Under the pieces are notes generated by a model. That model was given only the letters and a program-made list of their open reading frames with translations. It searched no databases and was not told where the DNA came from. A program made the position numbers and the translations under genes. 42,298 nt of DNA from Candidatus Babeliales bacterium (GTDB taxonomy: Bacteria > Babelota > Babeliae > Babelales > JABCYS01), in contig JAFGJD010000004.1 of the NCBI GenBank assembly GCA_016929235.1, forward strand, positions 128,866 through 171,163. Direction: 5' to 3'. Shown piece after piece: positions 3,242 to 29,764 of this stretch; the first letter of the stretch is position 1; each line of letters starts with the position of its first letter.

Positions 3242-3242
3242 A

Positions 3243-3800
3243 TTACTCCACGGCTTTCGTTTCTAGGGTTCCAACGGTAAGTTGCACGTCGAGCTTATTT
3301 GTGTTTTCTTGTTTTGTAATAGCGATGTCCTTTGTGTACACGCGTTCACTTTGTTCTAACTTGTGAAGACACTCGGTCAGTTGTTTCATATCAATTCCTG
3401 TTAAGTGAATCGCAACTCGGACCTCTGAATAGCCGGGCATATTCTCAAGGGGCTCTTCGGTTGGCGTCATACTTGCTTTGTACTGAGCAAGTTGGAGAGA
3501 GGCGAGGGTATCATTAAGGTAGCCAACAATTTTAAATGTCGGATCTTTGGCAAGAAGCAGCGCGACAGCTTCTTTCTGTTGTTTGACGTGCTCGTACTGT
3601 CCAAGAAGTTTTTGAGTTATTTCTCGATTATTATTAATGCGGCGAATTTTGCGTTTCATACTCGTCATGGAGTTATAGTGCCGATACATAATGCCACCGG
3701 TGATACCTACGGCGATTGAGAGCGAGCTGATGAGATAGAGCTTGAATTCTCGCGCATCAAGAGAATCAACAAACTGTTTAATAGGAGTGAGAAATTTCAT
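3243..3800 (-). CDS. gspM: GspM-like inner-membrane platform protein
   Basis: SLDARE before one TM helix, then coiled coil and a ferredoxin-like C-terminus (IHLTGIDMKQLTECLHKLE). Directly follows gspL. Confidence 0.7.
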   Translation of the reverse strand: MKFLTPIKQFVDSLDAREFKLYLISSLSIAVGITGGIMYRHYNSMTSMKRKIRRINNNREITQKLLGQYEHVKQQKEAVALLLAKDPTFKIVGYLNDTLASLQLAQYKASMTPTEEPLENMPGYSEVRVAIHLTGIDMKQLTECLHKLEQSERVYTKDIAITKQENTNKLDVQLTVGTLETKAVE

Positions 3801-5251
3801 ATTGACTCCACATCTTTGCTAAGGGTAATGGTAATATTGAATGCAGGTTCCTGTGGCCGAGATACGGTGCCGAGCTGTGCCTTATTCAGTTCTTCCTCGA
3901 ATATCACGAGGGCAGGAATGTCTTTGACTTCTCCCTTGAGTGTGATGAGGTCATGGGTTATCGTGAGATTTTTTAGTTTTAGCTCTGTACTCTCTGTATC
4001 GATCGCCCCGCAAAGTTTCTCGAGATATGTTAGGAATGAAGAGCGGGTTGAACGTGAAAAGGCAAACCAAATTCGATTCTGTGTTTCAACATAACTTTGT
4101 GCTTCTTCGACAAGGCGCTCAACGTTTCGTTCACCAGAAACGTTGAGATTACTTTGGATGGTATTTTTGAGTTTCTGTTCAGATTGTTTAATAGACATTT
4201 CTACTTTAGTGAGTTGCATCTGGCTAATTGTAAACAGCATAATAATGGTAGTGATAAAAAGCCCTAGTGCTGTAAATAGTTGTTGTGCAAATAGGTTCAT
4301 GCTTGGCTTCTCAAATTCCTGGCTCATCAAGGAGCAATATTCAGAGGCATCATTAGGGAGGCTGAGTACGCAACTTATTAGTGCGTCATTTGTTATTTCT
4401 ATGTTGCCCAGGATCCCTTCTTTATTAATAAACGAAGTCCCCTCTAAGATGGTAACGGGCATATTTAGTTTTGAATGCAGGTCTTTCTGAACATTGATTA
4501 GGTTATTTCCTGAACAAATAAAGAGTTCTGTGACCTCTGGGCCAATCCTACCAAAGCTAGTTAACGTTTGGCCTATGCTACTAATAGTTTCTGTAGTGAA
4601 TTCTGATTGCGTTTTGATAGTACGACAGTCAACGAGTTGTCCATTCTTGATATACCCAATGTTGATATGATTCATGCCGAGAATGATTAATGCAGCGGTA
4701 GTTTGTGCTGGGGCATTACATTGTTTCCATATTTCATAAGCTGCAAAAAGGTCGACAATGATACTGGTAGGAGTTAAGCCTCCAGCCTCAAGCTGTGCTA
4801 TGTGTTCAGCAACGTGTTGCTTTTGTGTAGCGGCGACTAAGATTGTTGAATGATTCGTTCCCTTTTCAGTGATGATAAAATCAAGTAGTGCATCCTGCGT
4901 AGAAAAAGGAAGAAGTTTTTCTACCTCATATGGAAGTACCAACTCAATTTTATCCCGGGAAATAAAAGGCAATGTCAGTGAGCGAAATGTTACTAGTGAA
5001 CTAGGGAATGCTGTCCTTAATATATCATATTTCCCTAGTTTGGCCTTAATGTTTGCGAGTGCAGTTGTTAGTGCTTCCGGTATTTCATTGGGTACTGTTT
5101 CTCGAAAGAGTGCTTCGAGCGTTTTGGTTGTCCCATACATATAACTTTTACATGCAATGACTTCGTTAACCCGTATTTCGAGACCAACGGCGCGCTGGGG
5201 AAAGACGTAGTAATCATTCACTTTTTCGGGTAACAGTACATTGCGTATCAT
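3797..5251 (-). CDS. gspL: GspL/PilM-PilN-like protein
   Basis: Actin-like N-domain (AVGLEI, FRSLTLPF, LPYEVEKLLPF), one TM, periplasmic PilN-like end (ITLKGEV). ATGA overlaps with both neighbours. Confidence 0.75.
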   Translation of the reverse strand: MIRNVLLPEKVNDYYVFPQRAVGLEIRVNEVIACKSYMYGTTKTLEALFRETVPNEIPEALTTALANIKAKLGKYDILRTAFPSSLVTFRSLTLPFISRDKIELVLPYEVEKLLPFSTQDALLDFIITEKGTNHSTILVAATQKQHVAEHIAQLEAGGLTPTSIIVDLFAAYEIWKQCNAPAQTTAALIILGMNHINIGYIKNGQLVDCRTIKTQSEFTTETISSIGQTLTSFGRIGPEVTELFICSGNNLINVQKDLHSKLNMPVTILEGTSFINKEGILGNIEITNDALISCVLSLPNDASEYCSLMSQEFEKPSMNLFAQQLFTALGLFITTIIMLFTISQMQLTKVEMSIKQSEQKLKNTIQSNLNVSGERNVERLVEEAQSYVETQNRIWFAFSRSTRSSFLTYLEKLCGAIDTESTELKLKNLTITHDLITLKGEVKDIPALVIFEEELNKAQLGTVSRPQEPAFNITITLSKDVESI

Positions 5252-7560
5252 GATGGCTGCTCTCCTGGCTCTTTGTCAGTCTTTTTGATGTAGTAATCAG
5301 GCTGTGCAATATCAACGCGTCGTTCTTGAAAGCGGCGGCTCATAAAATCATCAAATTCTTCTGTTTTATCATCACTGCTCTTGAAGAACCATCTATGAAT
5401 AGGATCACGTTCTTCTGATCTATCTCGTATGTCATGCATGGTATTGCTCGTATATTTTGCTTTATTTTGTGTATACGAGGAGGCACCACCTTCAGTGAGT
5501 GGCTGGATAATTTCAGGAGTGATAAAAATGAGCAGATTTTGTTTCTCTTTGCTCTTAGATTTGTTTTTGAATAACCAGCCAAGTAGTGGGATATCTCCCA
5601 AAATGGGAATCTTGGTTTGTGTTTCGGTAATCTTGCTTCTGATCAAGCCGCCTATAGCTAATATTTCTTTATTGGCAAGAATGACCTTTGTCTCAACGGT
5701 TTTAATATTACGCGTTGCGTCTGTTGGGTCAGTTGTATTGGTAAACTCGTCAATGCTGATTGATACATCCATCGTAATCATGCCTTCAGAGTTTATCTGA
5801 GGTGTGATTACCACCTTAAGCGATGCCGTTAAGCTATCATCACTGCTAGCGGTATTGGAGCCAGAAATAACCTGACCGACAGCAACCCGACGAGTTTCTC
5901 CAAGCTCGACAGTTGATTGATATTTATTGGCCGTAACAAGAAATGGATTTGATACTATATTGGTTTGTACCTGTGTTGAAAGCATCTTAAAGATTGCCCA
6001 GATATTTCCTTCTTGCCCAAGGGTTAGAAGTGTAGAACCTGCTTCATTGCCCGTAGCAAGACTAATAAGATTAGCCATGATACTGCCAGTTGTTGAATTG
6101 ATGATAGGTGATGTTCCTGAGCCACTTCTGATGAGGCCTGAATTCTGGAAGTTAACATTTGGATTAATCAAGTCGCTTGTTTTATTTCTCATTTGAGAGC
6201 CAAGCACCTTGTTCTTAGATAAGTTGACATCGACAATGAGGACCTCGATTGCAACTTGCGGTTGCATAATATCAAGGCGTTCAATGACTTCCTTTGCTTT
6301 CATGTAGTCATCATAGTTGCCCTTGATAATGAGGCGGTTTCCTTCTGGCTCTGCAGTGAAGGAGATCTTATTGAAATATTTGTCGCCATCGCGAACACTA
6401 CCATGCTGCGCAGGAACGGTACCAATGCCAAATTGTGTAACGTTGTTTAAGATAGTTGCCATGCTTGTAGCATTAGTATGTTGAAGATCGTATACATACA
6501 ATGGAGAAGGGGAACCGATAACTTCGACATCTACTTTTTTGATAAATTCTTCTAGTTTTTGAATTGATTCCTTATTTCCGAGTAATAAGAGAGCATTTGT
6601 TCTTGGTTCTGCAAGTACACTTGTTGATTGCGGGAATAAGAACGACTCTTGGTTTCTTCTGCCGCCAAACAACTGCGCGAGTTTACTTCGCGCTTCTTCT
6701 GTTGGTTTGACCAGATCACTGAATAACTTTTGGATATCTTCAGCATGGGCATACTGCAGTTTCACTACTGAGAGCATTTCAGGCATTTGCGTTGTATCAA
6801 GCTCTTGAACCACTTTCATGAGAGCCTTGATATTGTATGATTTGTCAGTGATGACCAGTGCTCTTAGATTGATAAATGAGCTTAGTGATGAGGTAACGCC
6901 GCGGAGTTGGTCAAGAATAGGGGAAAGACTTTCGACAGAGGTATTTTGTAAGAAGTAGACATATCGAATGCGTGTATCGTTATTTGGTAGATTGCGAGGA
7001 TCAGTACCAATATATGTTGGAAGGGCAACTTTATTTGCCTTGTCGGCCGATGCAGCAACTATCCGATGAACATCGGGGTATGGCGTTTCTGCCAATGAAA
7101 AACCTGCCATATCAAGAAAGACTGTGAACAGGTCCCATGCCTTCTGCCTAGTCATTGGACGCTCTGTTCTAAAAGAAATTTTATGTCCTGAGATGCCGCG
7201 ACCTCCCTGTGATATTGGGTTGACCGAATCGTCCATGATGAATGAAACATTGAATAGATCAGCCATATAATTGATTACATTACTCAATTCAGCGTCTTGG
7301 AAATTGAATTCTATTGTTGCGTCTTCGCCCTCAGCCTGTTCAAGCATGGCATCAATCGTTTTATCAATTTTTTGCTCAGCAGTAAGCGGAGTTGCTTGTG
7401 GTTGAGCTGCAGGAGTTATTGCTTTTTTGCGAGACTTTTTCGTGAGTGAAGATTTTATGCGTCGTTCTGGTTTTTGGGCAGAAAGCAACGACGTTCCCAT
7501 GCCGCATAATATAAGCAGGATTGTGAATGTCGTTGCGATTATGTGTCGTAGACCTTGCAT
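5248..7560 (-). CDS. gspD: Type II secretion secretin GspD, first copy
   Basis: Signal peptide, N0 (IEFNFQDAEL), N1-N3 repeats (AEPRTNALLL), LDIMQPQVAIEVLIVDV, KIPILGDIPLLGWLFK, NLLIFITPEII. Confidence 0.93.
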   Translation of the reverse strand: MQGLRHIIATTFTILLILCGMGTSLLSAQKPERRIKSSLTKKSRKKAITPAAQPQATPLTAEQKIDKTIDAMLEQAEGEDATIEFNFQDAELSNVINYMADLFNVSFIMDDSVNPISQGGRGISGHKISFRTERPMTRQKAWDLFTVFLDMAGFSLAETPYPDVHRIVAASADKANKVALPTYIGTDPRNLPNNDTRIRYVYFLQNTSVESLSPILDQLRGVTSSLSSFINLRALVITDKSYNIKALMKVVQELDTTQMPEMLSVVKLQYAHAEDIQKLFSDLVKPTEEARSKLAQLFGGRRNQESFLFPQSTSVLAEPRTNALLLLGNKESIQKLEEFIKKVDVEVIGSPSPLYVYDLQHTNATSMATILNNVTQFGIGTVPAQHGSVRDGDKYFNKISFTAEPEGNRLIIKGNYDDYMKAKEVIERLDIMQPQVAIEVLIVDVNLSKNKVLGSQMRNKTSDLINPNVNFQNSGLIRSGSGTSPIINSTTGSIMANLISLATGNEAGSTLLTLGQEGNIWAIFKMLSTQVQTNIVSNPFLVTANKYQSTVELGETRRVAVGQVISGSNTASSDDSLTASLKVVITPQINSEGMITMDVSISIDEFTNTTDPTDATRNIKTVETKVILANKEILAIGGLIRSKITETQTKIPILGDIPLLGWLFKNKSKSKEKQNLLIFITPEIIQPLTEGGASSYTQNKAKYTSNTMHDIRDRSEERDPIHRWFFKSSDDKTEEFDDFMSRRFQERRVDIAQPDYYIKKTDKEPGEQPS

Positions 7561-7574
7561 AGTTTACCCCGACC

Positions 7575-8717
7575 CTATAAATCAAACCGAGCTGGGTGAC
7601 TGCCAGCACCATGTTGTTCTAGTGATTTTATTTGCTTTAAGATACTACGTTTCTCACGCTTGCGTATAGTATCGAGTGTTGGGGCAAGCGTTTGCTTTTG
7701 CCTAAAGAGTTCGAGCTTCTCAGCTTCAATATCTTCTTCTGTTTTCTCAGGTGGTTCGACCCGGGGCAGTTCATTTTCATTATCATATGCTATATATGGC
7801 TTGCCCAGGGAATTTAATACTACATTTCTATGAAACTCCGCACCGCCTCGATTTCCTACAACGGAAATCGTTTCGCCAAGGGGGACTTTAAGTACCGCTT
7901 GGTAAATCTCTAGGCGATTTTTGTTGGTAGTGATTGGAATACCATTGACAGAAAGGAGGACATCTCCTTGTGTTAATTCAAGTTCCTTACCTAGTGAGCC
8001 TGATGTAACTTTACCTATACGGATGCCGGCGCTTCTTCCCTTTTTATAGACTGTTGTAATATCAAGCATCTCAATGAGCTGTGCAAGCGATGGTATAATT
8101 TCCTTGAACGCTTGGGGATCAATGATAAAAGTAGAATCTTTAACTTTCTTAATGATGCCATCCCATTGCTCTGCATCGTGAATTTCTGGCCCAAGTTTTG
8201 CATCTTCTTTTCTTAGATATAATAATTCTTCTTGCCCGTTTGCTCGAACAAGGAGGGTTCTGTTTCTAAAAATTCTCAGCACACTTGCATCGTCAATTTT
8301 GTCACCAATCTTAAAACTTTTTTCTTCCTTTGTACGGTTATTTGCAATAATAGCCCTATTAGTTTCATCTTGGCCGGTGATGATACAACCCTTCAGGGTC
8401 AGCTGGAGTGGTTCAACAAATTGCAACGGCTCTGGCTGTGGAATTCTAATTGGCAATGGCTGTGGTGGCGCGGGGAGGGGTGTGACGAAGGATTGTTGTT
8501 GTGGTTGAGGAAGTTGTTTGTGGTATGTCAGAAAGATGTCATTGTTATAGATTGATTCAATATCTATTTTGACATCTTCTTTCGTTTGCTCGGTGTAAGA
8601 AGTGGGTTCAAGAGAAACCCAACGAGGCGTGCGTTGACGAACTGCTATGAGCACCGTGATTGCCGTCACAAAAAGAATGAGCAATGAACTATTTAAAATC
8701 CAAACTGGATGGCGCAT
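7575..8717 (-). CDS. gspC: GspC with PDZ domain
   Basis: N-terminal TM, Pro-rich linker, HR domain (LTLKGCI...RAII...FKIGDKI), PDZ (GIRIGKV...LTQGDVLLSVNG). Immediately upstream of gspD. Confidence 0.85.
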   Translation of the reverse strand: MRHPVWILNSSLLILFVTAITVLIAVRQRTPRWVSLEPTSYTEQTKEDVKIDIESIYNNDIFLTYHKQLPQPQQQSFVTPLPAPPQPLPIRIPQPEPLQFVEPLQLTLKGCIITGQDETNRAIIANNRTKEEKSFKIGDKIDDASVLRIFRNRTLLVRANGQEELLYLRKEDAKLGPEIHDAEQWDGIIKKVKDSTFIIDPQAFKEIIPSLAQLIEMLDITTVYKKGRSAGIRIGKVTSGSLGKELELTQGDVLLSVNGIPITTNKNRLEIYQAVLKVPLGETISVVGNRGGAEFHRNVVLNSLGKPYIAYDNENELPRVEPPEKTEEDIEAEKLELFRQKQTLAPTLDTIRKREKRSILKQIKSLEQHGAGSHPARFDL

Positions 8718-15776: not shown

Positions 15777-15803
15777 AAAAGGGCGGAAAACATCCGCCCT
15801 TTG
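15777..15803. terminator. Bidirectional intrinsic terminator
   Basis: AAAA-GGGCGGA-aaaca-TCCGCCC-TTT between convergent genes. Confidence 0.85.
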
Positions 15804-15807
15804 TTAT

Positions 15808-18800
15808 TTAAAATCCATCATTATCGTCAGCCCACTCTAGGACAATACCAGAACTGACGGGTTCGGTTCCTGAGGCGTTTGCCTGTTGTTCATTGAGACT
15901 TTGTTCAGGTGCTCCCGTTTCACCAACGTTACCTTCGCCAGAGCCCGTATCGGATGTGGGCGGTTCTGATACATTTTGGGAGTTGGTTGGTACAACAGTT
16001 GGCAATGCATCAGTTGTTTGTTCTTGCGCTGGTTGTGCTTGATATGCTGCTTGTGAAGCTTCGATTTTTGTTTTGAGATTAGTAGATACAATGGATTGAT
16101 AATGCAGAGAATAGATTCGTGTGAAGCCTGTTTGGACCGGTTCTTCTTGTGCGGCTGTATAAGCGCTTCCGCTAACCAGGCTAATGATCCCATTGATATC
16201 AGATGTATATGGCATACCAAACTCGGCAGGCATATTGCTTGCATCTAGGTGTGCCATCACAACATAATCTGCATCAGCTGTGGTATCTGGTTTGATGGCA
16301 GTATAGATAAATACATTATTACCAAGATCAACTAGGCTGCTTGCCTGAAGTCGGTAGGATCCAAAATCAAACGGACCTTGTACAGTTGCAGTATATGCTT
16401 GTTGTAAGGTTACAATGCTTGAGCGTGTGGTATCGTCAATATGGCCATATCGTTGTTCGTATGAGTTGAGCACGGTACTTACCGTATCTGTCACTGTTCC
16501 TCCGGAATCATAAACCTTACCGGTTACTAAACTGACAACACAGTTGCCATCAGTTGGCAGGCACCCAATATCGTTGATCTCGCCAGCGCGTCGTCGATTA
16601 GCAAATACCACATAATCTTGTGTGGCTGCACCCTGTGCGTCGTTGAGTTGTGTACTTGGTGTTGTGTACATGAATTGGCTTAACATGAGATCAGTATCAC
16701 TTACCGCGGTCAGTACGAATGAGCCAAATTGTGGCGATTTACTTTGTGCACGCGCAGCACGCCTGTCTAGTTCACGATCAATTTCATTTTGTTCACGATC
16801 CTGACCGCGAAGCTTTGGTATTGTTTGTGCGGTTATTTCAGGCGATAAGAAGTCAAATTCTACGGATGCTCCTGAGGCAATAAATCCTAAGGTTGTTTCA
16901 TTGGTAGGGGTTACGGCTATGGATGAAAATCCTGGTTCTGTTTCTCCTTCTTTCCATATTTTGACTTGAAGTGTTGAACCGCTAAGTTGTGCCTTCATGC
17001 GATACCATGCACCGACTTCAAATGCAGGGCCTGATAGAGTTCCTTGATACCAGTTGTCGTTGAAAGTTTCTAGCGTGGTGTCATGTTCATACAATCCTAT
17101 GGTTGATGGGGATTCGGCCAGTGTTTTTTTATATACAAACATTTTAGCCAAATGTGCATGGTTGATGATTGTGTCAGATGATGCATTTAGTTCTTCAACT
17201 GTTTCAAATGGTTCTCCACCCAGATATAAACCAATGTGATACGTGCTGAGCACATACTGTGCTTGCCAACGAACCTCCACCTCTGCAAGACTAGATACAG
17301 ACGTTACGACCTTCTGAAGGAACCAGTATTTGGATTCAGGTGAGCTTGATGCAGTGTCATCGGCCGGTTCTACCGTTGAAGGAGATACTGCAATTTCTTG
17401 GCTATATGACTTCCTGCCGTCATTATAGACCGTGAATCCTTGCCCTGGATTCAAATCATTGACTCTTGTTCTAAATCCATAAAGTGAACCGACATCGGCT
17501 GGGATTGCGCCGGTATTTTGATCAGCCGTTAATAACGCAATGTTATAAGCACGAAGATTCTGTGCGAGCTGGCCCTTCGTGCTTTCATAGCGGTTTCCAA
17601 GAAATCCTTGATAGAAGCCAAGAGATCGTTCCATGTTACTGATTTGTGCGCCATATTTTTTATCAAGTTCATCTGCCATCACCTGTTGCAAATGAATCAT
17701 GGTGCTCTCAGTATTGTTGATGAACGTTTCATAATTGGCGACAAATGCATGCTGTTCTTGTTTGCGCTCTAATGCGGCTTCATCTTGTTGTCCTCCACCG
17801 ATTGCGCCAAAAACGCCAAAGGCTGCATCAAGTGTAAGGCCGATACCAAGGATCAGTGGGCCTCCTCCAAGTGCGATCGTAATCACTGCGAATTCTATGC
17901 CAAGAACAATATTGAAAAGTAGGCGCCTGTGGTCTGCTGCCCAGGCGGCAGATTTAGATCGCTGCCACGCATCTACAATATTTTGTCCCTCTACTACAGT
18001 GTGATACAAAGTCTCCAAGCCCCTTACGACGTCTAGAATGACATCTAAGATATAATTTGTAAGGTAGGCGATAAACTTGATTGCATCCTGAAGAATATCT
18101 AATAACTTATCTCCTATGAACGTGAGACTGCTGAGAATTGCGACACCCATGTCTTCGACAATATTTTTAAAATTATTTCCCCATTCGCCGAGGCTTTGTT
18201 CGCCAATTATGACTTCAATTCCTCCAACTAGTAGGTTATTAACGATGCGTATAGTGTCAAAGCCAAGCCTAAAAACCGTGCCGTGAAGTTTCATGACGCC
18301 ACCCGTTACACCCTCAATGGCGTCTACGACTATATCAGCTGCACTATTGAAAAGAGATTCAAATTCTGCCTGTAGAGTTGGATCTCCAAAGCCTAAAACA
18401 AAGCTTAAGCCTGCACCAACGGAGTGTAGCGCTCCTCGCTCAGCTTCCCCAAGATCATTAATAATGGCAACAATGCTATCATTTGCTTTGCCAAACGCTT
18501 TGGATGCCTCATCCATAAGTGCTTGATTGCCGGTGAAAAATCCAACTGTTCCCTTGCTAACGCCCTCCCAAGTGTCAGTAGCCCAATTTGCAATATCTCC
18601 TGGGACATCGGAAAGCGCGTCAACTGCTTCCTTTCCTCCCTCTACTATGCCATCCCAGACATCACTTAAATAGTTTTGTGGAACAACTGTTTCGTTTCGT
18701 GATGTAGATACTGATGAAAGGATAATGTCCTCATTTTCATCATCTTGGAAGGTAATAGGCTGTAGCGTTTCAGTATCATACGCAGCAATGGATCGGCGGG

Positions 18801-19839
18801 TGTCATTAAGCTCGCTAAGGTACACATAGTCATCGAGAGTGTAGGGCAAGATGGATGGTGTGGGGCTACTAGCTGCAAGTGCGGTCATGGTTTGCGAGAA
18901 TTTATCGCGATTAAAGAGTGGATTTAATTTTTTTTGTAATGCTGCTGCCATATGAATGGCTGTAATATAATGGGCTTCGATAGCCGTCAGAGCACCAAGA
19001 GTTGCGTGGTCCGCATTTATTGAATCATCCGACGTTGTCACAAATTGTTCTGGTTGGGAAGCTGCTTGGTAGAATGGTGTTGCTATATAAACTTTGATCT
19101 GATTTGAGAGAGCCGCAAAATTATTTGCGGTTGTTGACCAGGCATCATCAGCGCAGCTTGCTGCAAGGCGTTGTGTTACTGATCGAAGCAGGACGAGATA
19201 ATGTCGCATAAAGTCGATCGTATACCATGTATTGCGGCAGTCTGTTTGATGTATGGCAACATCAAGGTCGGGGAGATATTTATAGGTGCCAAGCTGAAAC
19301 GAGTTTGCATTAGAGGCAATTGATTCCATTTGATTAAATAGCTGAGCAAGCGTGTATTTGATATATGTTTGCCATATAGCTGATGCTTTTACCTCATCGG
19401 CGGTGATGGTTAATTGCGCAAGCGTAGTATTGAGTTGTTGTTGCGCAGTAGAGATAGCCTCATTCCAAGTTGTTTGTTCTGTAGCGGCCGAGTTGTTTTT
19501 ACCAATTGTAGCGATTTTAAGTGCACGCAAAGTGGTTAAAATTTCCTGTTTTTGTGACTCAGACCCTTTTTCATATTTAGCCAGTGTTTCTAAAAAAGCA
19601 TAAAACGATTTTACATACATTACTGTGATGGGATCGGTCGCGGCAAGATTAACTCCTCCTGATCCAAAAAACTGGTCGAGTTTATCCGCGTTGAGCGAAT
19701 CTGAAAGTTGAGTATATCCAGCAAATGCTGTATTCAGAGCATTATTGAGAGTTGCGTCAGATAAAGAAAGATCTTGGTTTTCTTGTGAAAATAACAAAAG
19801 CGTGCTGGCAAGCGGTATTATAAGGGATAGTTTTTTCAT
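15808..19839 (-). CDS. Large exported protein (1343 aa) with hydrophobic hairpin, coiled coil, lectin-like domain and two C-terminal repeats
   Basis: Long ORF with signal peptide. Gly-rich hydrophobic hairpin at aa ~640-683; GAWYRMKAQLSGSTLQVKIWKEGETEP beta-sandwich motif. ATGA-coupled to the upstream gene. Confidence 0.9.
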   Translation of the reverse strand: MKKLSLIIPLASTLLLFSQENQDLSLSDATLNNALNTAFAGYTQLSDSLNADKLDQFFGSGGVNLAATDPITVMYVKSFYAFLETLAKYEKGSESQKQEILTTLRALKIATIGKNNSAATEQTTWNEAISTAQQQLNTTLAQLTITADEVKASAIWQTYIKYTLAQLFNQMESIASNANSFQLGTYKYLPDLDVAIHQTDCRNTWYTIDFMRHYLVLLRSVTQRLAASCADDAWSTTANNFAALSNQIKVYIATPFYQAASQPEQFVTTSDDSINADHATLGALTAIEAHYITAIHMAAALQKKLNPLFNRDKFSQTMTALAASSPTPSILPYTLDDYVYLSELNDTRRSIAAYDTETLQPITFQDDENEDIILSSVSTSRNETVVPQNYLSDVWDGIVEGGKEAVDALSDVPGDIANWATDTWEGVSKGTVGFFTGNQALMDEASKAFGKANDSIVAIINDLGEAERGALHSVGAGLSFVLGFGDPTLQAEFESLFNSAADIVVDAIEGVTGGVMKLHGTVFRLGFDTIRIVNNLLVGGIEVIIGEQSLGEWGNNFKNIVEDMGVAILSSLTFIGDKLLDILQDAIKFIAYLTNYILDVILDVVRGLETLYHTVVEGQNIVDAWQRSKSAAWAADHRRLLFNIVLGIEFAVITIALGGGPLILGIGLTLDAAFGVFGAIGGGQQDEAALERKQEQHAFVANYETFINNTESTMIHLQQVMADELDKKYGAQISNMERSLGFYQGFLGNRYESTKGQLAQNLRAYNIALLTADQNTGAIPADVGSLYGFRTRVNDLNPGQGFTVYNDGRKSYSQEIAVSPSTVEPADDTASSSPESKYWFLQKVVTSVSSLAEVEVRWQAQYVLSTYHIGLYLGGEPFETVEELNASSDTIINHAHLAKMFVYKKTLAESPSTIGLYEHDTTLETFNDNWYQGTLSGPAFEVGAWYRMKAQLSGSTLQVKIWKEGETEPGFSSIAVTPTNETTLGFIASGASVEFDFLSPEITAQTIPKLRGQDREQNEIDRELDRRAARAQSKSPQFGSFVLTAVSDTDLMLSQFMYTTPSTQLNDAQGAATQDYVVFANRRRAGEINDIGCLPTDGNCVVSLVTGKVYDSGGTVTDTVSTVLNSYEQRYGHIDDTTRSSIVTLQQAYTATVQGPFDFGSYRLQASSLVDLGNNVFIYTAIKPDTTADADYVVMAHLDASNMPAEFGMPYTSDINGIISLVSGSAYTAAQEEPVQTGFTRIYSLHYQSIVSTNLKTKIEASQAAYQAQPAQEQTTDALPTVVPTNSQNVSEPPTSDTGSGEGNVGETGAPEQSLNEQQANASGTEPVSSGIVLEWADDNDGF
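16035..16737 (-). repeat. Two diverged ~115-120 aa tandem domains (protein-level repeat)
   Basis: FGSFVL..S..DL...FMYT...DYVVFA...VVSLVTGKVY...QQAY versus FGSYRL..S..DL...FIYT...DYVVMA...IISLVSGSAY...QAAY. Confidence 0.85.
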
Positions 19840-21401
19840 GACGAGCTCCTTTGCTGTAGCTTCGTTGTTACCAGCGTCTTAAAGGTATCAAGTTGATTTT
19901 GCGTATAGCGAAGCTCTTCTGGTTTTTTTACTGTGAATTCTGCTACACAACCGGGCGCCATAAATCCTATACCTCCATACAAAAATCCAAACTGTTCTAG
20001 GTTGTTGATGGTTGTATATTCAAGCGGTTCATTTGCTTGGGTTTCTTGTTCTGTGGCTCCCTGTTCCCACACTTTAAACGATACTTGGTTTGCTGCAGTT
20101 CGTATTTTGAAGATAAGTCGTAGAGTTCCTTCGTTTAATTTTTGTAATTGTTCTTCAGTGAGGACCTGGAAAGCTTGTGACTCAGGTTCGACTAATTGTT
20201 TGATTGGTGTGGTTATAGATAACCCGTCTGCAGTGTTACGAATAATTGTTTGCGCAAAATGAACCGATGCTGCTGGAACATTGTTTATGTTGGTTCCATA
20301 TAATCCGAGTAGTCTGTATTGACGCATACGCTCTGGGCTTCCTGATAACCAACGAGCTTTATTGAACATTATGCCGAGGCAGAATGGATATGAGACGCGA
20401 TGCGGGGTGCATGCAATTTCAATCTCATAGCCGTTAGATGCTGTGACATATTCTGAAAAGATCGAATTATTTTGCGCGTATTCTGGGCTCTTAGGATCAC
20501 TTTGATCAAAGAACGTTTGTAGTTGTGTTTGTATAAATGAATTTGTTGATTCATTAAATTGCCAGTCTCCACAACGTGATACGTTATACCAGCTATAACG
20601 ACCGCTTGGAGTAAACATTGGTGAGTGTGCAAACGCTTTATCCAAATTGATTTGATCGATCAACATCATTTGTTTTGGTAGAGCGATATTGAGAGACTTA
20701 TCTAATGTCATAAGTTGTCGTTCTACTGTAGAACCGCTAGCTTCGTATTGTGCTTCAAGCTGTTCTTGTGCTGCTGCAAAATTACCTGCAAGTTGAGCAA
20801 ATATCGTTTCTTGTTCAACCTGTGCATCATCTATGAACGTGTCGAAGTTTTCTTCGAGGGTTTTACGTTTTTCATCTATGACAGCAAACTCATCCGCGTC
20901 TTTTTGATCTTCCCATTGTGTTAGCATGCCAAGAGCCATTCCAACAGGGAGATACGCTATGATGATGCTAATGGGATTATGAAGAATCTTGCTCATAAGG
21001 GTTGGCATTGCTTGAGTAGCTACATCTCGAATTATTGTTCTTTGGAGAGCTTTTTCAACCCAGCTTGTTCCCATATGTTCAAGTGCAGCTTCTACCGATG
21101 TTCGCATCTCGGCAATTGCTGCGGATCTGGCAAGTTGTTTTGCTGCTACTTTCTCCGCGACTTCCTTTGCGGCTTCTCGCGCGGCAGCGTATGCCGCCTT
21201 TAGTACGGTTCTTCTGATAGCAAGTTCTCCTACAAATGCAGCAATTTTCCCCGCGGCTTCAACCAGAATTGCTCCTATACCCTGTACAATCACGATCTCA
21301 TTGCGTGGTGCGATAGGCGTTTCTGGAATGGTATAGTGATAAACAAAAAACGATGTTCCAAGGACTACGGTGAGGGATGCAGCTAGTACTTTTTTCTTCA
21401 T
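19836..21401 (-). CDS. Exported/anchored protein (521 aa), apparent paralog of the central part of the 1343-aa protein
   Basis: N-terminal signal or anchor, amphipathic Ala-rich helices, one hydrophobic segment, coiled coil, beta-rich end (VSFKVWEQGATE...IGFMAPGCVAEF). Confidence 0.88.
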   Translation of the reverse strand: MKKKVLAASLTVVLGTSFFVYHYTIPETPIAPRNEIVIVQGIGAILVEAAGKIAAFVGELAIRRTVLKAAYAAAREAAKEVAEKVAAKQLARSAAIAEMRTSVEAALEHMGTSWVEKALQRTIIRDVATQAMPTLMSKILHNPISIIIAYLPVGMALGMLTQWEDQKDADEFAVIDEKRKTLEENFDTFIDDAQVEQETIFAQLAGNFAAAQEQLEAQYEASGSTVERQLMTLDKSLNIALPKQMMLIDQINLDKAFAHSPMFTPSGRYSWYNVSRCGDWQFNESTNSFIQTQLQTFFDQSDPKSPEYAQNNSIFSEYVTASNGYEIEIACTPHRVSYPFCLGIMFNKARWLSGSPERMRQYRLLGLYGTNINNVPAASVHFAQTIIRNTADGLSITTPIKQLVEPESQAFQVLTEEQLQKLNEGTLRLIFKIRTAANQVSFKVWEQGATEQETQANEPLEYTTINNLEQFGFLYGGIGFMAPGCVAEFTVKKPEELRYTQNQLDTFKTLVTTKLQQRSSS

Positions 21402-21409
21402 CTATGTTC

Positions 21410-22792
21410 CTAACTACTCATACGTAAGATAATGCCTTCAGTTTCCGGCTTGAGAATATTGAGGCCGATCAGTGCGGTGAAATCTCCAAGACATCCACGG
21501 GTTACCTTAATAATGTCGTCAGGAGAGTTGAGCCATGTAGGCTGTCTTAATAACTCTTGTTCGAAGATTGCATTTCCAGAAGGCATGTTAACAAATAAAG
21601 CTTGTGCTCCTCCTTGACTACTTATTTCATTTCCTTGACTGTCCTTAAAGAAGGCAACCCTAAATGGCAGTTCGGCATTTGTTGCTGCATTCCGTGCATG
21701 TGTTCCTTGAACAGCAGCGGTGACGTATTGTACGGGCCAGTCTATGAGTTGAGATGTTGTAGGAATATTTTCAATAAGCAGAGGAATGACTCGTACGGCA
21801 CGGATAGTTCCTTGTGATGGAAAGAAAAATTGAGGTACAATTGGTTTATTTTGTTCTTGATACGATTTGACTAATGTTCTCATGGATGTCATATCGCGTA
21901 CTAGTTCATTTTCTCCAAGATATGCTTGCGCTGTCGGTTTTTGTAAAATGAGATTGGTGTAGGTTCTAAAGAGGTTGAAGTAAGTGCCAAAGATTTGTTT
22001 ATAAGCCGCCTGTTTATTTTTAACTGCTTCTCGTGTTGGAGCATCTAAGTTAAGGCCCGTTTCCATAGTAGCATCGTCGATTGTAAGAAGTGTCAGGTTC
22101 ACATTTGTGTCATTGTGAAGGATGGTTTTGCCTGTAAAAGCCGCGATCGATTTTGGAAGAGCTGAAAAGAGCGCTTGAGAAAATTTATATGACTGTGCAT
22201 CAACAATGTTAATTAAGTGCTCAACAATAAGAAATTTTTCGTTGAATGCGTATTGTTGTTCATAGGTAACGAATGTATCAAGAGTATCAATTTTGGTGAG
22301 GATAAAAGTTGCAAGTATTTTTTTTAGATGACTGTATAGTTGGCGCAAAACAGTTGTATACATCTGCTTTAGATACACATAAAAAATTGGATCTTGAGCA
22401 ACACTTGTTTGCAGTGATGAGAATGATGATGCAAGCGAGCCGTTATTTGGGAAAAATTGTGATGCGGACGGGTAATTATTTTGAAACAGGTTTGGAATAT
22501 CTGAAATGCAAAATCCACCCCCAATGGCCATCATACCAAACTGGGCGGCAAATGGAGTATTGTATCGGTTATCGTCATTTTTCTTTTCTAAGGTTCCATC
22601 GGGACGTGCAAGTGCATTCAGTAGTTGAGCATCAGTGAATGCTCGCGTTGTGCTGCCCGCCTGCTCTTCTTGTTGATCAGTTGGAGTAATGTCATTTGTA
22701 TCAATGTCGTCCATCGATGGACCGTCATCGAGTGCTTGTATTAGGGCACCGTGCAATGCACAGTAGGCAAGCACGAAAATCCATCGCTTCAT
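21410..22792 (-). CDS. Exported hypothetical protein (460 aa), first gene of the three-gene operon
   Basis: AAGGAG RBS, signal peptide ending IQA, acidic N-terminus, mostly helical-looking; 8 bp gap to the next gene. Confidence 0.88.
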   Translation of the reverse strand: MKRWIFVLAYCALHGALIQALDDGPSMDDIDTNDITPTDQQEEQAGSTTRAFTDAQLLNALARPDGTLEKKNDDNRYNTPFAAQFGMMAIGGGFCISDIPNLFQNNYPSASQFFPNNGSLASSFSSLQTSVAQDPIFYVYLKQMYTTVLRQLYSHLKKILATFILTKIDTLDTFVTYEQQYAFNEKFLIVEHLINIVDAQSYKFSQALFSALPKSIAAFTGKTILHNDTNVNLTLLTIDDATMETGLNLDAPTREAVKNKQAAYKQIFGTYFNLFRTYTNLILQKPTAQAYLGENELVRDMTSMRTLVKSYQEQNKPIVPQFFFPSQGTIRAVRVIPLLIENIPTTSQLIDWPVQYVTAAVQGTHARNAATNAELPFRVAFFKDSQGNEISSQGGAQALFVNMPSGNAIFEQELLRQPTWLNSPDDIIKVTRGCLGDFTALIGLNILKPETEGIILRMSS

Positions 22793-22940
22793 GTATATCT
22801 CTCCTTATGCGGAAGAAAAATCACACATAGGGTAGCCAATGATCTTTTTAAGAATCAATAGCTGTGTAAATTTACCTCTCCTTCAAAAAATATTATAGTT
22901 GCCTCAACATATCAGGAGACATCATAGATGTGGAGTATTC

Positions 22941-24146
22941 ATGGTTAATAGATTCAGATTAGTTTTCATGATGGGTGGATTACTTCTTACAGGATGGGTT
23001 GGATATCGTACGTATCATTATTTTTTTGATGATACCACGCCTGCGGTGATCCTCGATGGAATAGATGCAGAAAAATATTGCGCCGGCAATCTACAATGTA
23101 TTGTTAAGGGTTCAGACAGCTATAATGTTGCTAATCTTTCTATATGGTTAGATGATGTTCCATTGGTAACTAAGTTTCGTATTAATAAAAAAGCATTTGA
23201 GCACCCATTTACCATTAATACACATGCACTCAATAATGGAGTTCATAGATTGCGGGTTGAAGCAGTAAACGGAACGTACCGTCACAATCGGAGCGTTCAT
23301 GATTATTCCTTTAGTGTTGATAATCAACCTCTCCAGGCAGCGTTTGTTCGTCCCGAATCGGACCTAAAGGTATTTCAGGGAAGAACGCTTCATCTTCAAT
23401 TTCAAGTCAACAAGCCTATTAAAGATGCTCGCGTGAAGCTCCTTGCTCAAGAGTTCAAGTGTTATCCCGAATCACAGGGCTCTTCAATCTACGAGGCCTT
23501 CATTCCTATTGATTGTGAAGAGCAGCCTAATGAATACTTACTTGCCCTTGAGATTGAGGATCATGTTGGTAACTCGCAGACGCTGGAAAACAAATTTCAA
23601 GTGCTCATGTTTCCATTTAAAAAGCATACCGTTCGCGTTGACTCAGGCAAGGTTCAGCAGGAGGAAAAGTTAGGTAAGGATGATAAAGAACTTCGTGAAC
23701 TGATTGCACAATGCTGCTCGCAGTCACCACAAGAAAAACTGTGGCGAGGTGCGTTTATTACACCGCTTGAGATGACAACACAGACAGCAGATTTTGGCTC
23801 GATTCGCACTACAGTTGAAAAGGGTCGGTACATGCATAAGGCTGTCGACATCATTGGCCAACCTAAAACGGTGGTTTGGGCATCGCAAGATGGTATTGTT
23901 ATTGCCAAAGATCGTTTCGTTCAATCAGGTAATACCGTTGTGGTCGATCATGGATGTGGTGTAATGTCCTTATATTGTCATTTAGACAAATTTGCGACTC
24001 TTAATGTGGGTGACCACGTGAAGAAAGGTAACCCACTAGGTATTATGGGAAAGACAGGTTTTGCGACGGGTGATCATCTCCATTGGGAACTCGTTATTAA
24101 CGGTATTCCGGTTGATCCGATGCAGTGGACGAAGCAAAATTTCTAA
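22941..24146 (+). CDS. Membrane-anchored M23 metallopeptidase
   Basis: HKAVD, GNTVVVDHG, YCHL, GKTGFATGDHLHWE, VDP. N-terminal TM and Ig-like region. GGAG RBS before ATG 22941. Confidence 0.93.
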   Translation: MVNRFRLVFMMGGLLLTGWVGYRTYHYFFDDTTPAVILDGIDAEKYCAGNLQCIVKGSDSYNVANLSIWLDDVPLVTKFRINKKAFEHPFTINTHALNNGVHRLRVEAVNGTYRHNRSVHDYSFSVDNQPLQAAFVRPESDLKVFQGRTLHLQFQVNKPIKDARVKLLAQEFKCYPESQGSSIYEAFIPIDCEEQPNEYLLALEIEDHVGNSQTLENKFQVLMFPFKKHTVRVDSGKVQQEEKLGKDDKELRELIAQCCSQSPQEKLWRGAFITPLEMTTQTADFGSIRTTVEKGRYMHKAVDIIGQPKTVVWASQDGIVIAKDRFVQSGNTVVVDHGCGVMSLYCHLDKFATLNVGDHVKKGNPLGIMGKTGFATGDHLHWELVINGIPVDPMQWTKQNF

Positions 24147-24745: not shown

Positions 24746-25306
24746 ATGTATTTCATATCTCAAAATAACAGAGTGTATTCATATCTCATTCGAATGTCAC
24801 AGCCAGTATGGTATGTGTTAACAATCGGATGTGGTCTTCTGTTGAGCTTGGTGTGGTGGAAGAGTTGGTATGAGCCGCTTTCGTCTAAAGAGACAAGGTT
24901 CCACGGAGAATATAAAACGCTTTTACAGCAACAAGATGCCTTTGCACGTATTCAGCATGCGAATAAAAAGCTCAAAGATGAAGTTACTTCCTTAGAGGTT
25001 TCGATTACTGATTATCTTGCCCATGTGCATCCTCATGAAATTACTCTCAAAAAATTTATCGACAAAGCACTTGAAGCAGGGCTAACTTTGATTTCCTATG
25101 CCCCGAAGGAAAGTATTGCGACCAAGTGGTACATGATTCATGAAGTCGAGGCTGGGCTTATTGGTTCATATGAAAATATCGTGCGGCTTTTGCATGTTCT
25201 TTCTATTCGCCAAGATTTGCTGGTAATCAAGTCGTTTTCTATTCGTAATGATGGCGACAAGTTGTACTTGTATTGTACCATTCGTGTAAGTGAGGGGTTA
25301 GTATGA
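24746..25306 (+). CDS. pilO: PilO/HofO-like protein
   Basis: TM plus coiled coil plus AGLTLISYAP...LIGSYENIVRLL PilO-type pattern; upstream of a secretin. Confidence 0.7.
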   Translation: MYFISQNNRVYSYLIRMSQPVWYVLTIGCGLLLSLVWWKSWYEPLSSKETRFHGEYKTLLQQQDAFARIQHANKKLKDEVTSLEVSITDYLAHVHPHEITLKKFIDKALEAGLTLISYAPKESIATKWYMIHEVEAGLIGSYENIVRLLHVLSIRQDLLVIKSFSIRNDGDKLYLYCTIRVSEGLV

Positions 25307-25704
25307 AGTATCGGATAGTCCTGGTGTGTTTCATGAGTGCAGCTATTGCTTGTAGTGATATGAAAGAGCATGTATTGCCGCTTGAGCTTGGTAATACACA
25401 GCGGGATCCGTTTGTATGGTCTACGGCTAAAGGAAAAGAGTCTTCCAAAGAAATCATACAAGAGGAACCTATTGTTAATGCGCAGCTTGAGCCGGAGGTA
25501 AGGGTTATTGAAAAACCAGCATGGCGCGTGTTCGGAGCTGCTACAACAAAACGAGATGCATACGCGTTATTGCGAGATGGTGATCACCAGCGGCTCGTAG
25601 AAGCCGGTGCAGATGTTGGTGGTGGATGGAGGGTATCGGAAATTACCACTCATAAAATCATGTATGTACATGAGACAGGAGAGCAATGGATCGTTGGAGT
25701 CTAA
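25303..25704 (+). CDS. pilP: PilP/HofP-like lipoprotein
   Basis: Lipobox-like AIAC, RDPF motif, WRVFG..AYALL..V..GADV..WRVSEIT beta domain. Confidence 0.72.
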   Translation: MKYRIVLVCFMSAAIACSDMKEHVLPLELGNTQRDPFVWSTAKGKESSKEIIQEEPIVNAQLEPEVRVIEKPAWRVFGAATTKRDAYALLRDGDHQRLVEAGADVGGGWRVSEITTHKIMYVHETGEQWIVGV

Positions 25705-27047
25705 TTGTTATAGCATGCTCTATCGGTGTAGGAGTGCATGCTTCCTCAGAAAAGACCTATGATGCGGAAATCATCTGCCAGCTGTCTAACATATTCAAGC
25801 ATAAAGGCCTGGCAGATTGTAGGTTGACCTTGGTATCACAGCCGGGAAATATCAATGAATGTTTGACCCTACTACGTGCTGCATCTGGTCAGGATATTAT
25901 GATAGACCAGCATCTTGCAGGAGAGTGCGGGGCATTTCACTTCTCTGATAAGACGGTAGGCGAAATACTAGACGTGATTTGTTCAAGTTACTCACCGCGT
26001 CTAGCACTGGTATCACAAAGTGGCGTATGGCGCTTGGTTGCATACGATGCTGCATATGAACACTTGAAATCGCAACAAAAAACACAACTGATTCAAAGAG
26101 TGTTTTCGTTAAAACATGCACGATGCGATGATGCATTTATCGAGAAAGTGCAAACAATCTGGAATCTTATTATTAGAGAACAAACTGATGTTGATGCGGC
26201 ATATTGTACGATTGATACAGAGAGCAAGAAAATCTTTGTCAAAGCGCCTAAGAATGCATTAGCTGAATTTGAAAATTTCTTAAAAGAGATTGATTGTGCA
26301 AAACCACAGGTTCGCATCGATGCACTTGTAGCCATTGCAGACAAAAATTACGAGTATGGTCTTGGTATGAATTGGTCAGGTATCTATGACCGGCAAGCAA
26401 GTATGAATGGCAAGTTTGATCTTGCGACCGTTGGTGCAACCGCTGAAAATTATGGCATTAATTTAGTACGAAAGCATGACAGTCCTTTGACGCTTCCGCT
26501 TACGTTTGGTGGTCCGGATCTCAATATTTTGAAACTCAATGTTGAACTACATGCAGCTGAAAATGAAGATCGTGTTCGTATTTTATTAAAACCTTCAGTA
26601 CTTACTAGTCATGAAGAAACTGCAGAGATTCTTATTGGTAAAAGCTTTCCTATCAAAAATATTATAAAAAAGGGCGATGATAAGGCCCCGCCAATTCATA
26701 CTATCGAATACAAGGACATTGGCACTATCTTGAACGTAAAACCATCTGTGAGCCCGAACCAACAAACAGTTCTTTTGGATATTTGGGTTGAAGACTCTGC
26801 TGTAGCCAGTCTTGCCTCTGCTGATCAGGCTCCTATCATCAAAACCATTCGAACAAAAAATAAAGTATTGCTTAAGAGTGGGCAAACGACAGTAATCGGT
26901 GGTTTGATGTTGAATAAACAGGAGCATACGAAGGTTGCTATCCCGGGGCTTGGTAAAGTTCCGTTACTCGGGTGGATGTTTAAGCATGATAAAAAAATAA
27001 AAGAAGATAGCGAGCTGTTGATTTTTATTACACCAACAATTGTGTAA
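25686..27047 (+). CDS. pilQ: Short PilQ/HofQ-like secretin
   Basis: IDCAKPQVRIDALV, YKDIGTILNVKP, LKSGQTTVIGGL, IPGLGKVPLLGWMFK, ELLIFITPTIV at the C-terminus. No AMIN domains apparent. Confidence 0.85.
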   Translation: MDRWSLIVIACSIGVGVHASSEKTYDAEIICQLSNIFKHKGLADCRLTLVSQPGNINECLTLLRAASGQDIMIDQHLAGECGAFHFSDKTVGEILDVICSSYSPRLALVSQSGVWRLVAYDAAYEHLKSQQKTQLIQRVFSLKHARCDDAFIEKVQTIWNLIIREQTDVDAAYCTIDTESKKIFVKAPKNALAEFENFLKEIDCAKPQVRIDALVAIADKNYEYGLGMNWSGIYDRQASMNGKFDLATVGATAENYGINLVRKHDSPLTLPLTFGGPDLNILKLNVELHAAENEDRVRILLKPSVLTSHEETAEILIGKSFPIKNIIKKGDDKAPPIHTIEYKDIGTILNVKPSVSPNQQTVLLDIWVEDSAVASLASADQAPIIKTIRTKNKVLLKSGQTTVIGGLMLNKQEHTKVAIPGLGKVPLLGWMFKHDKKIKEDSELLIFITPTIV

Positions 27048-28141: not shown

Positions 28142-29764
28142 CTAAAAAAGCTCATTAATTAAAGAATTGATTTCTTTTGTCGTAATGGGCGACATTGCTC
28201 GATAGAATGTTTCGTCATATTCGCGTGTTTGGACCACAACCGGCATTGCAGCGGCATGTCCAAGGATCAGTGCTTGTTTCTTGGTATCCAACGACGACAA
28301 GATAGATCGTAGATTTGATGCATTATTAACACCACTTAGCACGCCTTGTATGTCTTTTTCGTCATTGAGTTGCGCAATGATCTTAGTTCCGATTTGCGAT
28401 AAGACCTCCTCATCGATACCAGAAGGCCGCTGATCAACGATTAAAAGCGATACGTAATACTTTCTCATTTCACGAGCAATGGTGCCAAAGATAGTTTGGC
28501 GAGCTGCAGATGGGCTCAAAAATTTGTGTGCTTCTTCTATACATATCATCAATTTTTTCGGCTCATCACTTTTATTTTGTGAACCCAAGAACTTTTCGGT
28601 TCGTTCAATGTATTCACTATGGATTCGTCGTGTCAGAATATTGGCAATTAACAAATAACAGAAAGTTGAAGTATAGTTGCCAAATTCCACAATGATGTTG
28701 ATGCCTTTATTGATATAATCCATCATGCGATCAATAACAGATTGGTCTTTATATGCTCCACCAGGATGCATTGGCTTGAAGAAGGGAAATCGTTCAATGC
28801 GTTTTAATTTTCTATACAATGCAGCAATTGATTCTGGATGTGCACCAAGTTCTTGTGCAAATTCCTTTAGATTGTCTCCCTGTTCGAGTAAAACTTGTAG
28901 CCAATCTTTTTTATAGCGTGTTGCGATCAGATAGGCTGCTTCAAATGCTGTCGAGTGAAGGTTGAGTTCATTTTGTAGAGAAAGAATATCTTCAACATGA
29001 ATGGCTTGGTACGGAATTACAATTTCAAAATCAGGGCTTCCACCGCGGCGACGTGTTGATTCTGGATCTAAAGAAAAAATGGCAACACGATCAGGAAAGA
29101 GTGTTTTGAGTCCCTTTACGAAATGCTGAGTAGGCCCTTCTTTGCGTGCTTGTAATCCGTATTCACTGTGCATGTCGAAAATAAGATTGACTGCTTTTTC
29201 GTTTTTAATAAGACCTGCCAATACCAAGCGCGTTAAGAATGTTTTACCTGTACCAGTCTTTCCGAAAATACCATTGCTGCGTTCAGTTAGTTTTTCTAAA
29301 TCAAGACAAACAGGAGTTGTCATATCTAATGGACATCCAATATTGAAATAACGCTGCGATGGATCTGCTTCATCACCAAAGATGAGAGCGACGTCCTGAT
29401 GGGTTGCTTCGTATACATGAGAAAAATGTGGAGGAATTGTCTTAACAGGCATCTTTGTATTTTGTTGATCGAGCATCAGCATTGGTTTAAGAGTTGCCGT
29501 TGCATAAATGTCTTTTTTATACAAAATATTTTTTAATAATGGTTCATCAGGTTCTGGCGGGAATAGTAAAATATCGGGAGATGAGACTTCAAGACGCAGG
29601 TCTGTAATGAGCGAAAAGAACCGATGTGTGCTCCCAGAGACGCACACAAATTTTCCTGTTTTGATATCTTCAAGATGTGTTTCAGGACTAATGCGAATCA
29701 CAAACCCTTCGGTTAATGATCCAGATATGACATGACCTACTACCTTTTTCATGCAGGAAAGCAT
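28142..29764 (-). CDS. herA: HerA/DUF87-family ATPase (DNA translocase-like)
   Basis: HAS-barrel-like N-terminus, Walker A GKTGTGKT, IFDMHSEY, Walker B ICIEEAHKF, IAREMRKY, DQRPS. Alternative start 29752. Confidence 0.9.
   Translation of the reverse strand: MLSCMKKVVGHVISGSLTEGFVIRISPETHLEDIKTGKFVCVSGSTHRFFSLITDLRLEVSSPDILLFPPEPDEPLLKNILYKKDIYATATLKPMLMLDQQNTKMPVKTIPPHFSHVYEATHQDVALIFGDEADPSQRYFNIGCPLDMTTPVCLDLEKLTERSNGIFGKTGTGKTFLTRLVLAGLIKNEKAVNLIFDMHSEYGLQARKEGPTQHFVKGLKTLFPDRVAIFSLDPESTRRRGGSPDFEIVIPYQAIHVEDILSLQNELNLHSTAFEAAYLIATRYKKDWLQVLLEQGDNLKEFAQELGAHPESIAALYRKLKRIERFPFFKPMHPGGAYKDQSVIDRMMDYINKGINIIVEFGNYTSTFCYLLIANILTRRIHSEYIERTEKFLGSQNKSDEPKKLMICIEEAHKFLSPSAARQTIFGTIAREMRKYYVSLLIVDQRPSGIDEEVLSQIGTKIIAQLNDEKDIQGVLSGVNNASNLRSILSSLDTKKQALILGHAAAMPVVVQTREYDETFYRAMSPITTKEINSLINELF

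Follow-up and report, generated by a model that had tools for sequence, protein, structure and literature searches.

A conserved glutamine site in two exported-type proteins of Candidatus Dependentiae, with an unlinked S8 subtilase as its candidate protease

How Dependentiae leave the food vacuole and enter the host cell is unexplained in the literature passages that we examined. Two neighbouring genes in a stretch of 42,298 nucleotides from a Candidatus Babeliales bacterium (assembly GCA_016929235.1; hereafter the window, meaning the whole stretch that was analysed) raise the question of whether proteins exported by these bacteria are primed by a cut after a conserved glutamine. The genes, A and B, encode proteins of 1343 and 521 amino acids (aa). 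A sequence-only reading of the window had picked out in both an octapeptide of the form RNExVxxQ, ahead of what it took to be an amphipathic segment, and had proposed that both are pro-proteins cut after the Gln to expose a membrane-active N-terminus. The octapeptides lie exactly where that reading placed them on the minus strand: RNETVVPQ at 18676-18699 (aa 381-388 of A) and RNEIVIVQ at 21282-21305 (aa 33-40 of B). On profile comparison, A and B are distant paralogues over a coiled coil and a beta domain (hhalign 77.6%, E 1.9e-5, 296 columns) and belong, with a third gene, C, to a three-gene cassette of Candidatus Dependentiae.

Alignment of homologues, the check proposed for the VxxQ core, upheld it. 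We aligned 41 A proteins and left out four (three with duplicated, misaligned front domains and one duplicate); for B we used the 82 of 124 representatives with a complete match to the front domain. Of these, 33 of 37 A proteins and 75 of 82 B proteins have the Gln, with V, I, A or P at P4 and mostly V, I or P at P2; P3 and P1′ are variable, the residues seen at P1′ being F, A, M, G, S and D. The motif stands at a domain boundary: in 64 of 82 B proteins the front domain's last conserved Trp is followed by the Gln at a distance of 23 residues, and the adjacent columns vary. All three A proteins left out for duplication have V-x-I-Q behind the second front domain, and P0028, with two front domains, has it after each. 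A matrix trained without both query proteins ranked Q40 of B sixth among 243,995 positions in the genome; Q388 of A is outside that protein's top four matrix sites, and its assignment rests on the alignment. As a general secretion tag the motif failed in a scan of the proteome, the top matrix matches being mostly housekeeping proteins. Two other glutamines were considered and rejected. Q130 of B (DVATQ), suggested by one alignment, is absent from the four best matrix scores of B and is further disfavoured by L082, which has the same leader-motif-insert layout; IVPQ321 in C scores highly, but Pro stands there in 33 of 41 homologues, so we regard it as a chance match.

What is conserved is the core [VIAP]-x-[VIPT]-Q and not the RNE in front of it, which occurs at one of 37 A sites (the query itself) and at none of 82 B sites and is thereby ruled out as part of the signal, although [ND] and E are frequent at P7 and P6 of A (16 and 13 of 37). 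The full RNExVxxQ pattern occurs three times in the 742 open reading frames (ORFs) of the 809-kb genome, the third time just past the DKTGT motif of what is presumably a P-type ATPase. Windows with at least five of eight identities between shuffled A and B arose in 200 of 200 shuffles (mean 20). Because the pattern was picked post hoc and shuffles match as often, the pair match alone is not evidence. The alignments thus indicate that the sequence-only reading found a real conserved site, partly by way of a chance triplet.

Natural deletion forms of B mark the same point. Thirty-four B proteins begin with a hydrophobic stretch and lack a match to the front domain. Of these we put aside eight with a divergent front domain and two that are truncated, and judged signal-peptide ends by eye in the remaining 24. 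In 18 of these full-length proteins the signal peptide runs directly into the sequence that elsewhere follows the Gln, in several cases in exact register (VVIQ/DMMTDMAILIG in P0058 vs IHA/NMMTDMAVMMG in P0014, slashes marking the junctions); many of the 18 are close kin. Five others, including the query, keep a short linker and the motif, and one is ambiguous. The five divergent-front proteins with a visible junction (L092, L093, L094, P0101 and P0109) keep V-x-[VP]-Q. Similarly, the Ala/Gly/Glu-rich N-terminus of the giant protein D, encoded elsewhere in the genome, begins right after the signal in the eight homologues with a visible start. These forms are most simply explained if the mature N-terminus has to start here, be it made by signal peptidase or by a second cut.

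We searched for an enzyme by comparing with Pfam the 233 of the 742 ORFs that lie outside the window, have a hydrophobic N-terminus and are no shorter than 140 aa. The peptidases recovered were C11, S49, S41, two S26, M23, S8, C39, HtrA, A24 and a Lon. The S8 domain scores 93.7 bits against a curated cut-off of 21.8, matches subtilisin chains (E 4e-13) and has an intact catalytic Asp-His-Ser triad and oxyanion Asn in order (D102, H138, N240 and S312); the catalytic motifs are kept in most homologues shown, the oxyanion motif being degenerate in G043. The subtilase gene is on another contig (C3) than the cassette (C2), and no S8 protein was recognised among cassette neighbours.

The subtilase and the cassette are co-distributed, a new observation for an unlinked exported S8 subtilase and B. 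The S8 protein is present in 16 of 17 cassette-positive relatives and in none of 43 others, and PF00082 occurs in exactly the 18 of 61 genomes that have A, B and C. Across the order (261 genomes), 49 have B, 48 have S8, 47 have both and 211 have neither; the two B-only genomes hold diverged S8 genes, and in the single S8-only genome the M23 gene that marks the cassette locus is missing too, which suggests an assembly gap. The match holds within families, where the genomes with B and those with S8 are identical each time (4 of 41 in f2, 1 of 3 in f1 and 8 of 10 in f10). G003 has each of the two unlinked loci assembled without a break, and each is cleanly lacking its gene; uvrC lies directly next to M23 in this genome, as in G134 and G072. 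As partners, C39 (41/61), C11 (59/61) and M23 (55/61) were rejected because their distributions mismatch that of the cassette. Identity of S8 correlates modestly with that of A over 19 genomes (Spearman 0.34), but the pairs are not independent and we did not use this as evidence. Subtilase homologues (L146-L175) vary in having an N-terminal pro-region and in having an insert of 150-300 aa within the catalytic domain; those of genus g7, the lineage in which B lost its front domain, are short and diverged.

The segment exposed by a cut would differ between the two proteins. In A, the site does lie at the start of an amphipathic segment (moment 0.53, reached by none of 2000 shuffles), and the 18 residues after the Gln are amphipathic in 27 of 37 homologues (p<0.05), with a median moment of 0.44 vs 0.20 upstream. 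In B, the segment is hydrophobic instead (moment 0.26, p 0.09), and the Gln of some lineages is followed by an acidic insert rich in Ala and Glu, so that the proposal of a membrane-active N-terminus fits A better than B. The further suggestion that the cut releases B from an N-terminal anchor is plausible where a homologue has a leader of lipoprotein type (P0075 and L079, judged by eye); the leader of the query may be an ordinary cleavable signal.

From these observations we infer cleavage, its enzyme and membrane activity as follows. A and B would be exported through Sec by their signal-like leaders and would pass through type II secretion; this route is suggested by the leaders, by secretin genes in the window and by reports of the secretion route of the phylum. 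The S8 subtilase would then cut both after the conserved V-x-V-Q, dropping a shielding front domain or tether and freeing a hydrophobic or amphipathic N-terminus. The head of B would bind glycan, A would assemble with B, with C as chaperone or third subunit, and the freed N-termini would insert into the host vacuole membrane to form a breach or conduit. A cut after the Gln, by whatever agent, is in our judgement very probable, given the boundary Gln, the register of the deletion forms and the co-distributed subtilase, with aliphatic P4 and P2 and Gln at P1, rather than RNE, as its determinant. If there is a cut, the subtilase is probably the agent, and the proteins fairly likely act on a host membrane instead of serving as anchor or adhesin. 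The complete chain, in which maturation by the subtilase after Gln frees a membrane-active N-terminus that acts on a host membrane, has in our view a little better than an even chance.

Several points weigh against this chain. The Gln column has exceptions: S, T, A and A in the remaining four A proteins, and, in B, Gln two residues earlier in two proteins and no Gln in five. The genomes are related by kinship, so that the co-occurrence depends on a handful of independent losses, and some negative genomes are incomplete (G109 59%, G131 78%). A larger module is lost together, since protein D homologues (1900-2700 aa) track the cassette, occurring only in cassette-positive genomes (12/61); the subtilase could then act elsewhere in the module. 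The peptidase scan covered 233 of the 742 ORFs, and distribution was profiled for S8, C39, C11 and M23 among the types recovered. The putative pro-junctions of the subtilase itself (by eye) have V or I at P4 and I, L or T at P2, but P1 is not Gln. The acidic Ala/Glu-rich inserts that follow the Gln in B proteins of family f12 do not look lytic and argue against one uniform lytic peptide. Finally, the cut need not be the switch, because adenovirus protein VI is lytic cleaved or uncleaved (PMC4113798).

The best-surviving alternative accepts a cut by the subtilase and differs in what follows: A and B would form a tethered, lectin-tipped surface adhesin or an envelope-spanning stalk, with the hydrophobic segment anchoring in the bacterium's own membrane or driving pilin-like assembly. 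The predicted lectin-fold head on a 70-residue helix, the hydrophobic hairpin in A, the variable, acidic inserts after the Gln and the related giant protein D with its repeats would all suit such a structure. Against it, 27 of 37 A homologues conserve at the N-terminus an amphipathic Trp/Phe helix, of a type probably commoner among surface-seeking lytic segments than among anchors, and B proteins with a lipoprotein-like leader, which would be enough to anchor them, still have the motif behind it. We consider an adhesin or stalk improbable.

The cut could also be real and made by something else, with the subtilase co-inherited for another job. Gln/Asn cyclisation occurs in inteins and viral capsid proteins, and self-cleavage of this kind could break the chain here; other candidates are a host protease, one of the two tandem S26 signal peptidases, or C as a new cysteine protease. 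Two tandem S26 genes are indeed present, and C, encoded alongside A and B, conserves H192, C434 and D437. But the swaps of S, T, A or C for Gln at P1 and the fixed aliphatic P4 and P2 suit an enzyme pocket better than Gln chemistry, the model of C is mostly helical with no match to a protease fold (best Z 4.6), and it is the subtilase whose profile matches the cassette; we place this alternative slightly below the adhesin. Least likely of all, and a poor prospect in our view, is that VxxQ is never cut and serves as a short binding strand or helix cap docking on C, a paralogue or the secretion machine: B forms without the front domain do retain it, but it is dispensable where the end of the signal peptide gives the same N-terminus (18/24), it lies in a low-confidence loop of the model, and a protease is co-distributed with it.

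Maturation by a subtilase in this way has partial parallels. S8 peptidases often mature partner substrates (PMC9424270). In the polymorphic toxin system S8-PTS and in other secretion-linked subtilases (mycosins and the Bordetella autotransporter subtilase; PMC9424270), as here, a signal-bearing S8 protein is tied to exported partners whose maturation is proposed or known. The present system differs in that the S8 gene is not beside its partner and in that the site ends in Gln, where S8-PTS sites end in basic residues. It has no toxin-domain polymorphism or immunity gene, the C-terminal parts are conserved and no constant small gene follows A; no BetaH domain was recognised, no search with a BetaH profile having been made, and the system belongs to a lineage of Gram-negative parasites of protists. 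A second parallel is in cleavage specificity. The scissile bond of the ITAQ-containing substrate peptide of the Plasmodium subtilase SUB1 is Q-D. SUB1 uses Val at P4 and reads an aliphatic P4, as the candidate here would, but it needs Gly or Ala at P2, where our sites have V, I or P (PMC6993865, PMC7616463).

Among membrane-active systems, the tripartite alpha-pore-forming toxins of the ClyA family (Hbl, Nhe, AhlABC and SmhABC; PMC7979752) likewise come as three genes in one orientation, and their helical subunits are paralogues that conceal hydrophobic hairpins or amphipathic helices. Their switch is described as conformational, not proteolytic (PMC7979752), and here A and B have a lectin-fold head and a removable front domain, and C is unrelated to A and B. 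No ClyA, Hbl, Nhe or Ahl Pfam family was found among 21 A members, 79 B members or C, and the ClyA fold is absent from the matches listed for the B and C models, the B list being filled by the lectin domain. Nor did type III hydrophobic translocators (IpaB/SseC) match by Pfam in 21 A members; A has a signal-like leader, where such translocators have no Sec signal. The sites are unlike those of type IV prepilins, as they lack the G/F-x-x-x-E N-methylation motif, have Gln at P1 and a variable P1′, and gave no N_methyl match. Class I fusion proteins are protease-matured viral membrane-penetration proteins. Adenovirus protein VI is a further example, a precursor trimmed by a dedicated protease to leave an N-terminal amphipathic or hydrophobic helix before a helical stalk (PMC4113798). 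The likeness to viral proteins is an analogy only: fold matches in a viral library concern the beta-sandwich, with TM by query of at most 0.23, and the proteins here are bacterial and have signal peptides.

The biology of the group gives the proposal its interest. Chromulinavorax passes from vacuole to cytoplasm within 3 h (PMC6561590), and Babela stays in the vacuole (PMC4378268). For Babela, no secretion system other than type II has been reported (PMC4378268), and type II is reported as the secretion route of the phylum (PMC4378268, PMC4776705). The finding supplies a candidate machine made of uncharacterised protein families, a precise predicted maturation site and a candidate enzyme. A Gln-specific bacterial subtilase would also be unusual. 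We found no description of the cassette in the searched literature, which did not extend to subscription papers and supplements, and within it the A, B and C families appear undescribed; the lead may open onto an uncharacterised protease-primed system. Bolder, and tentative enough that we think it the less likely outcome, is a single joint picture of a bacterial counterpart of a viral entry machine, in which a dedicated subtilase would prime two lectin-headed coiled-coil proteins, together with C and giant D, and the freed N-terminal helices would pierce or fuse the protist food-vacuole membrane. If true, such a machine would single out roughly one fifth of Babeliales as entering the host cytoplasm by this route.

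Table 1. Positions of the cassette genes, their predicted parts and associated features (window coordinates unless a contig of the query genome, G000, is named)
Feature	Position	Strand	Extent and description
A site VVPQ	18676..18687	-	aa 385-388, predicted P4-P1
B site VIVQ	21282..21293	-	aa 37-40, predicted P4-P1
Gene A	15808..19839	-	1343 aa: signal peptide, helical front (pro) domain, motif, long amphipathic region
Gene A, downstream parts			hydrophobic hairpin, coiled coil, beta domain, two C-terminal repeats
A front (pro) domain	18805..19767	-	about aa 25-345
A amphipathic helix	18622..18675	-	aa 389-406, predicted new N-terminus
A hydrophobic hairpin	17800..17922	-	aa 640-680, two transmembrane-like windows
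A coiled coil and beta domain	16831..17772	-	about aa 690-1003, paralogous to B stalk and lectin-fold head
A two C-terminal repeats	16030..16752	-	common with unlinked protein D
Gene B	19836..21401	-	521 aa: leader, short linker, motif, 100-aa Ala-rich insert
Gene B, downstream parts			hydrophobic helix, stalk, predicted lectin-fold head; without the ~190-aa front domain of most homologues
B hydrophobic helix	20919..20975	-	aa 143-161, conserved
B concanavalin-A-like beta-sandwich head	19917..20618	-	about aa 262-495; from model of homologue P0030
Gene C	21410..22792	-	460 aa, exported-type, mostly helical, no motif
Divergent M23 peptidase	22899..24146	+	locus marker, outside system; in 55/61 genomes
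10-bp stem-loop, terminator-like	15778..15802		just beyond end of A
S8 subtilase	G000 C3:122266-123720		leader and Peptidase_S8 (PF00082) domain
Protein D	G000 C3:143849-149230 = L129:10852-16230	-	about 1770 aa

The cassette is a minus-strand run of C, B and A between a divergent M23 peptidase and uvrC, with one small gene separating the end of A from uvrC (Table 1). A, B and C are each present in the identical 18 of 61 genomes, the query genome counted in, and the order C-B-A is kept in 16 of 16 relatives that have the stretch on one contig; among these, one B is split by a stop and one C and B are joined across a stretch of N. A profile of B found 155 representatives among 1.84 billion sequences before scores faded into fragments. 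A, B and C gave no Pfam or NCBIfam match (Pfam was also run on the 21 A and 79 B members), profiles of B and C no sequence match in the PDB, and C no profile match to A, B or their front domains. DNA-pattern scans seeded with single proteins found no relatives, and a promoter scan at the locus showed no excess over shuffles. On one contig of G068 (C1; L094-L095), two copies of the cassette occur with A and B in pieces.

An AlphaFold model of the long B homologue P0030 (79 sequences, mean predicted local distance difference test (pLDDT) score 88.8) predicts, in order, a helical domain to residue 208, the motif loop, a low-confidence hydrophobic stretch (213-240), a 70-residue helix and a beta-sandwich; confidence falls at the motif loop, between the confident helical domain and the hydrophobic stretch. 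The modelled head resembles the thrombospondin C-terminal domain (Z 14.0, root-mean-square deviation (rmsd) 3.3, 177 aligned) and CBM66 (Z 13.7), and its matches as a beta-sandwich (Z 12-14, rmsd 3.0-3.8, 158-189 aligned), with which Foldseek agrees, assign it as modelled to the concanavalin-A-like lectin/CBM fold, which does not in itself imply sugar binding. The first part of the A front domain and the front domain of long B homologues are weakly similar in hhalign (84% over only 40 columns), and protein D has the C-terminal repeats of A (E 1e-25).

The mostly helical model of C has no significant fold match. Atlas searches gave nothing usable for C and only leads below 0.9 for B. Conserved residues of C are K186, H192, Q200, G221, C434 and D437, with H192 in 39 of 41, C434 in 38 of 38 ungapped and D437 in 37 of 38 homologues. 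Cys434 and Asp437 (window 21482-21493) and His192 (22217-22219) are kept even without a second Cys nearby, and could possibly form a catalytic site. In family f12, C is enlarged to about 1200-1400 aa by helical inserts.

Elsewhere in the window, three secretin genes occur within 42 kb (932-8717 and 24746-27047), two of them GspD-like and next to GspC/L-like genes, the third PilQ-like and preceded by small pil-like genes, and a HerA-type ATPase (DUF87) lies between two unannotated ORFs at 28142-29764. The two tandem S26 signal peptidase genes stand beside an M23 gene on contig C4 (L121:17277-18973), and one of them might have a special specificity. Contig C1 (42592-47154; L119:4595-9154) encodes an exported-type helical protein of 1520 aa, which has G-S-I-S-G-P-S repeats at its N-terminus and matched nothing in Pfam.

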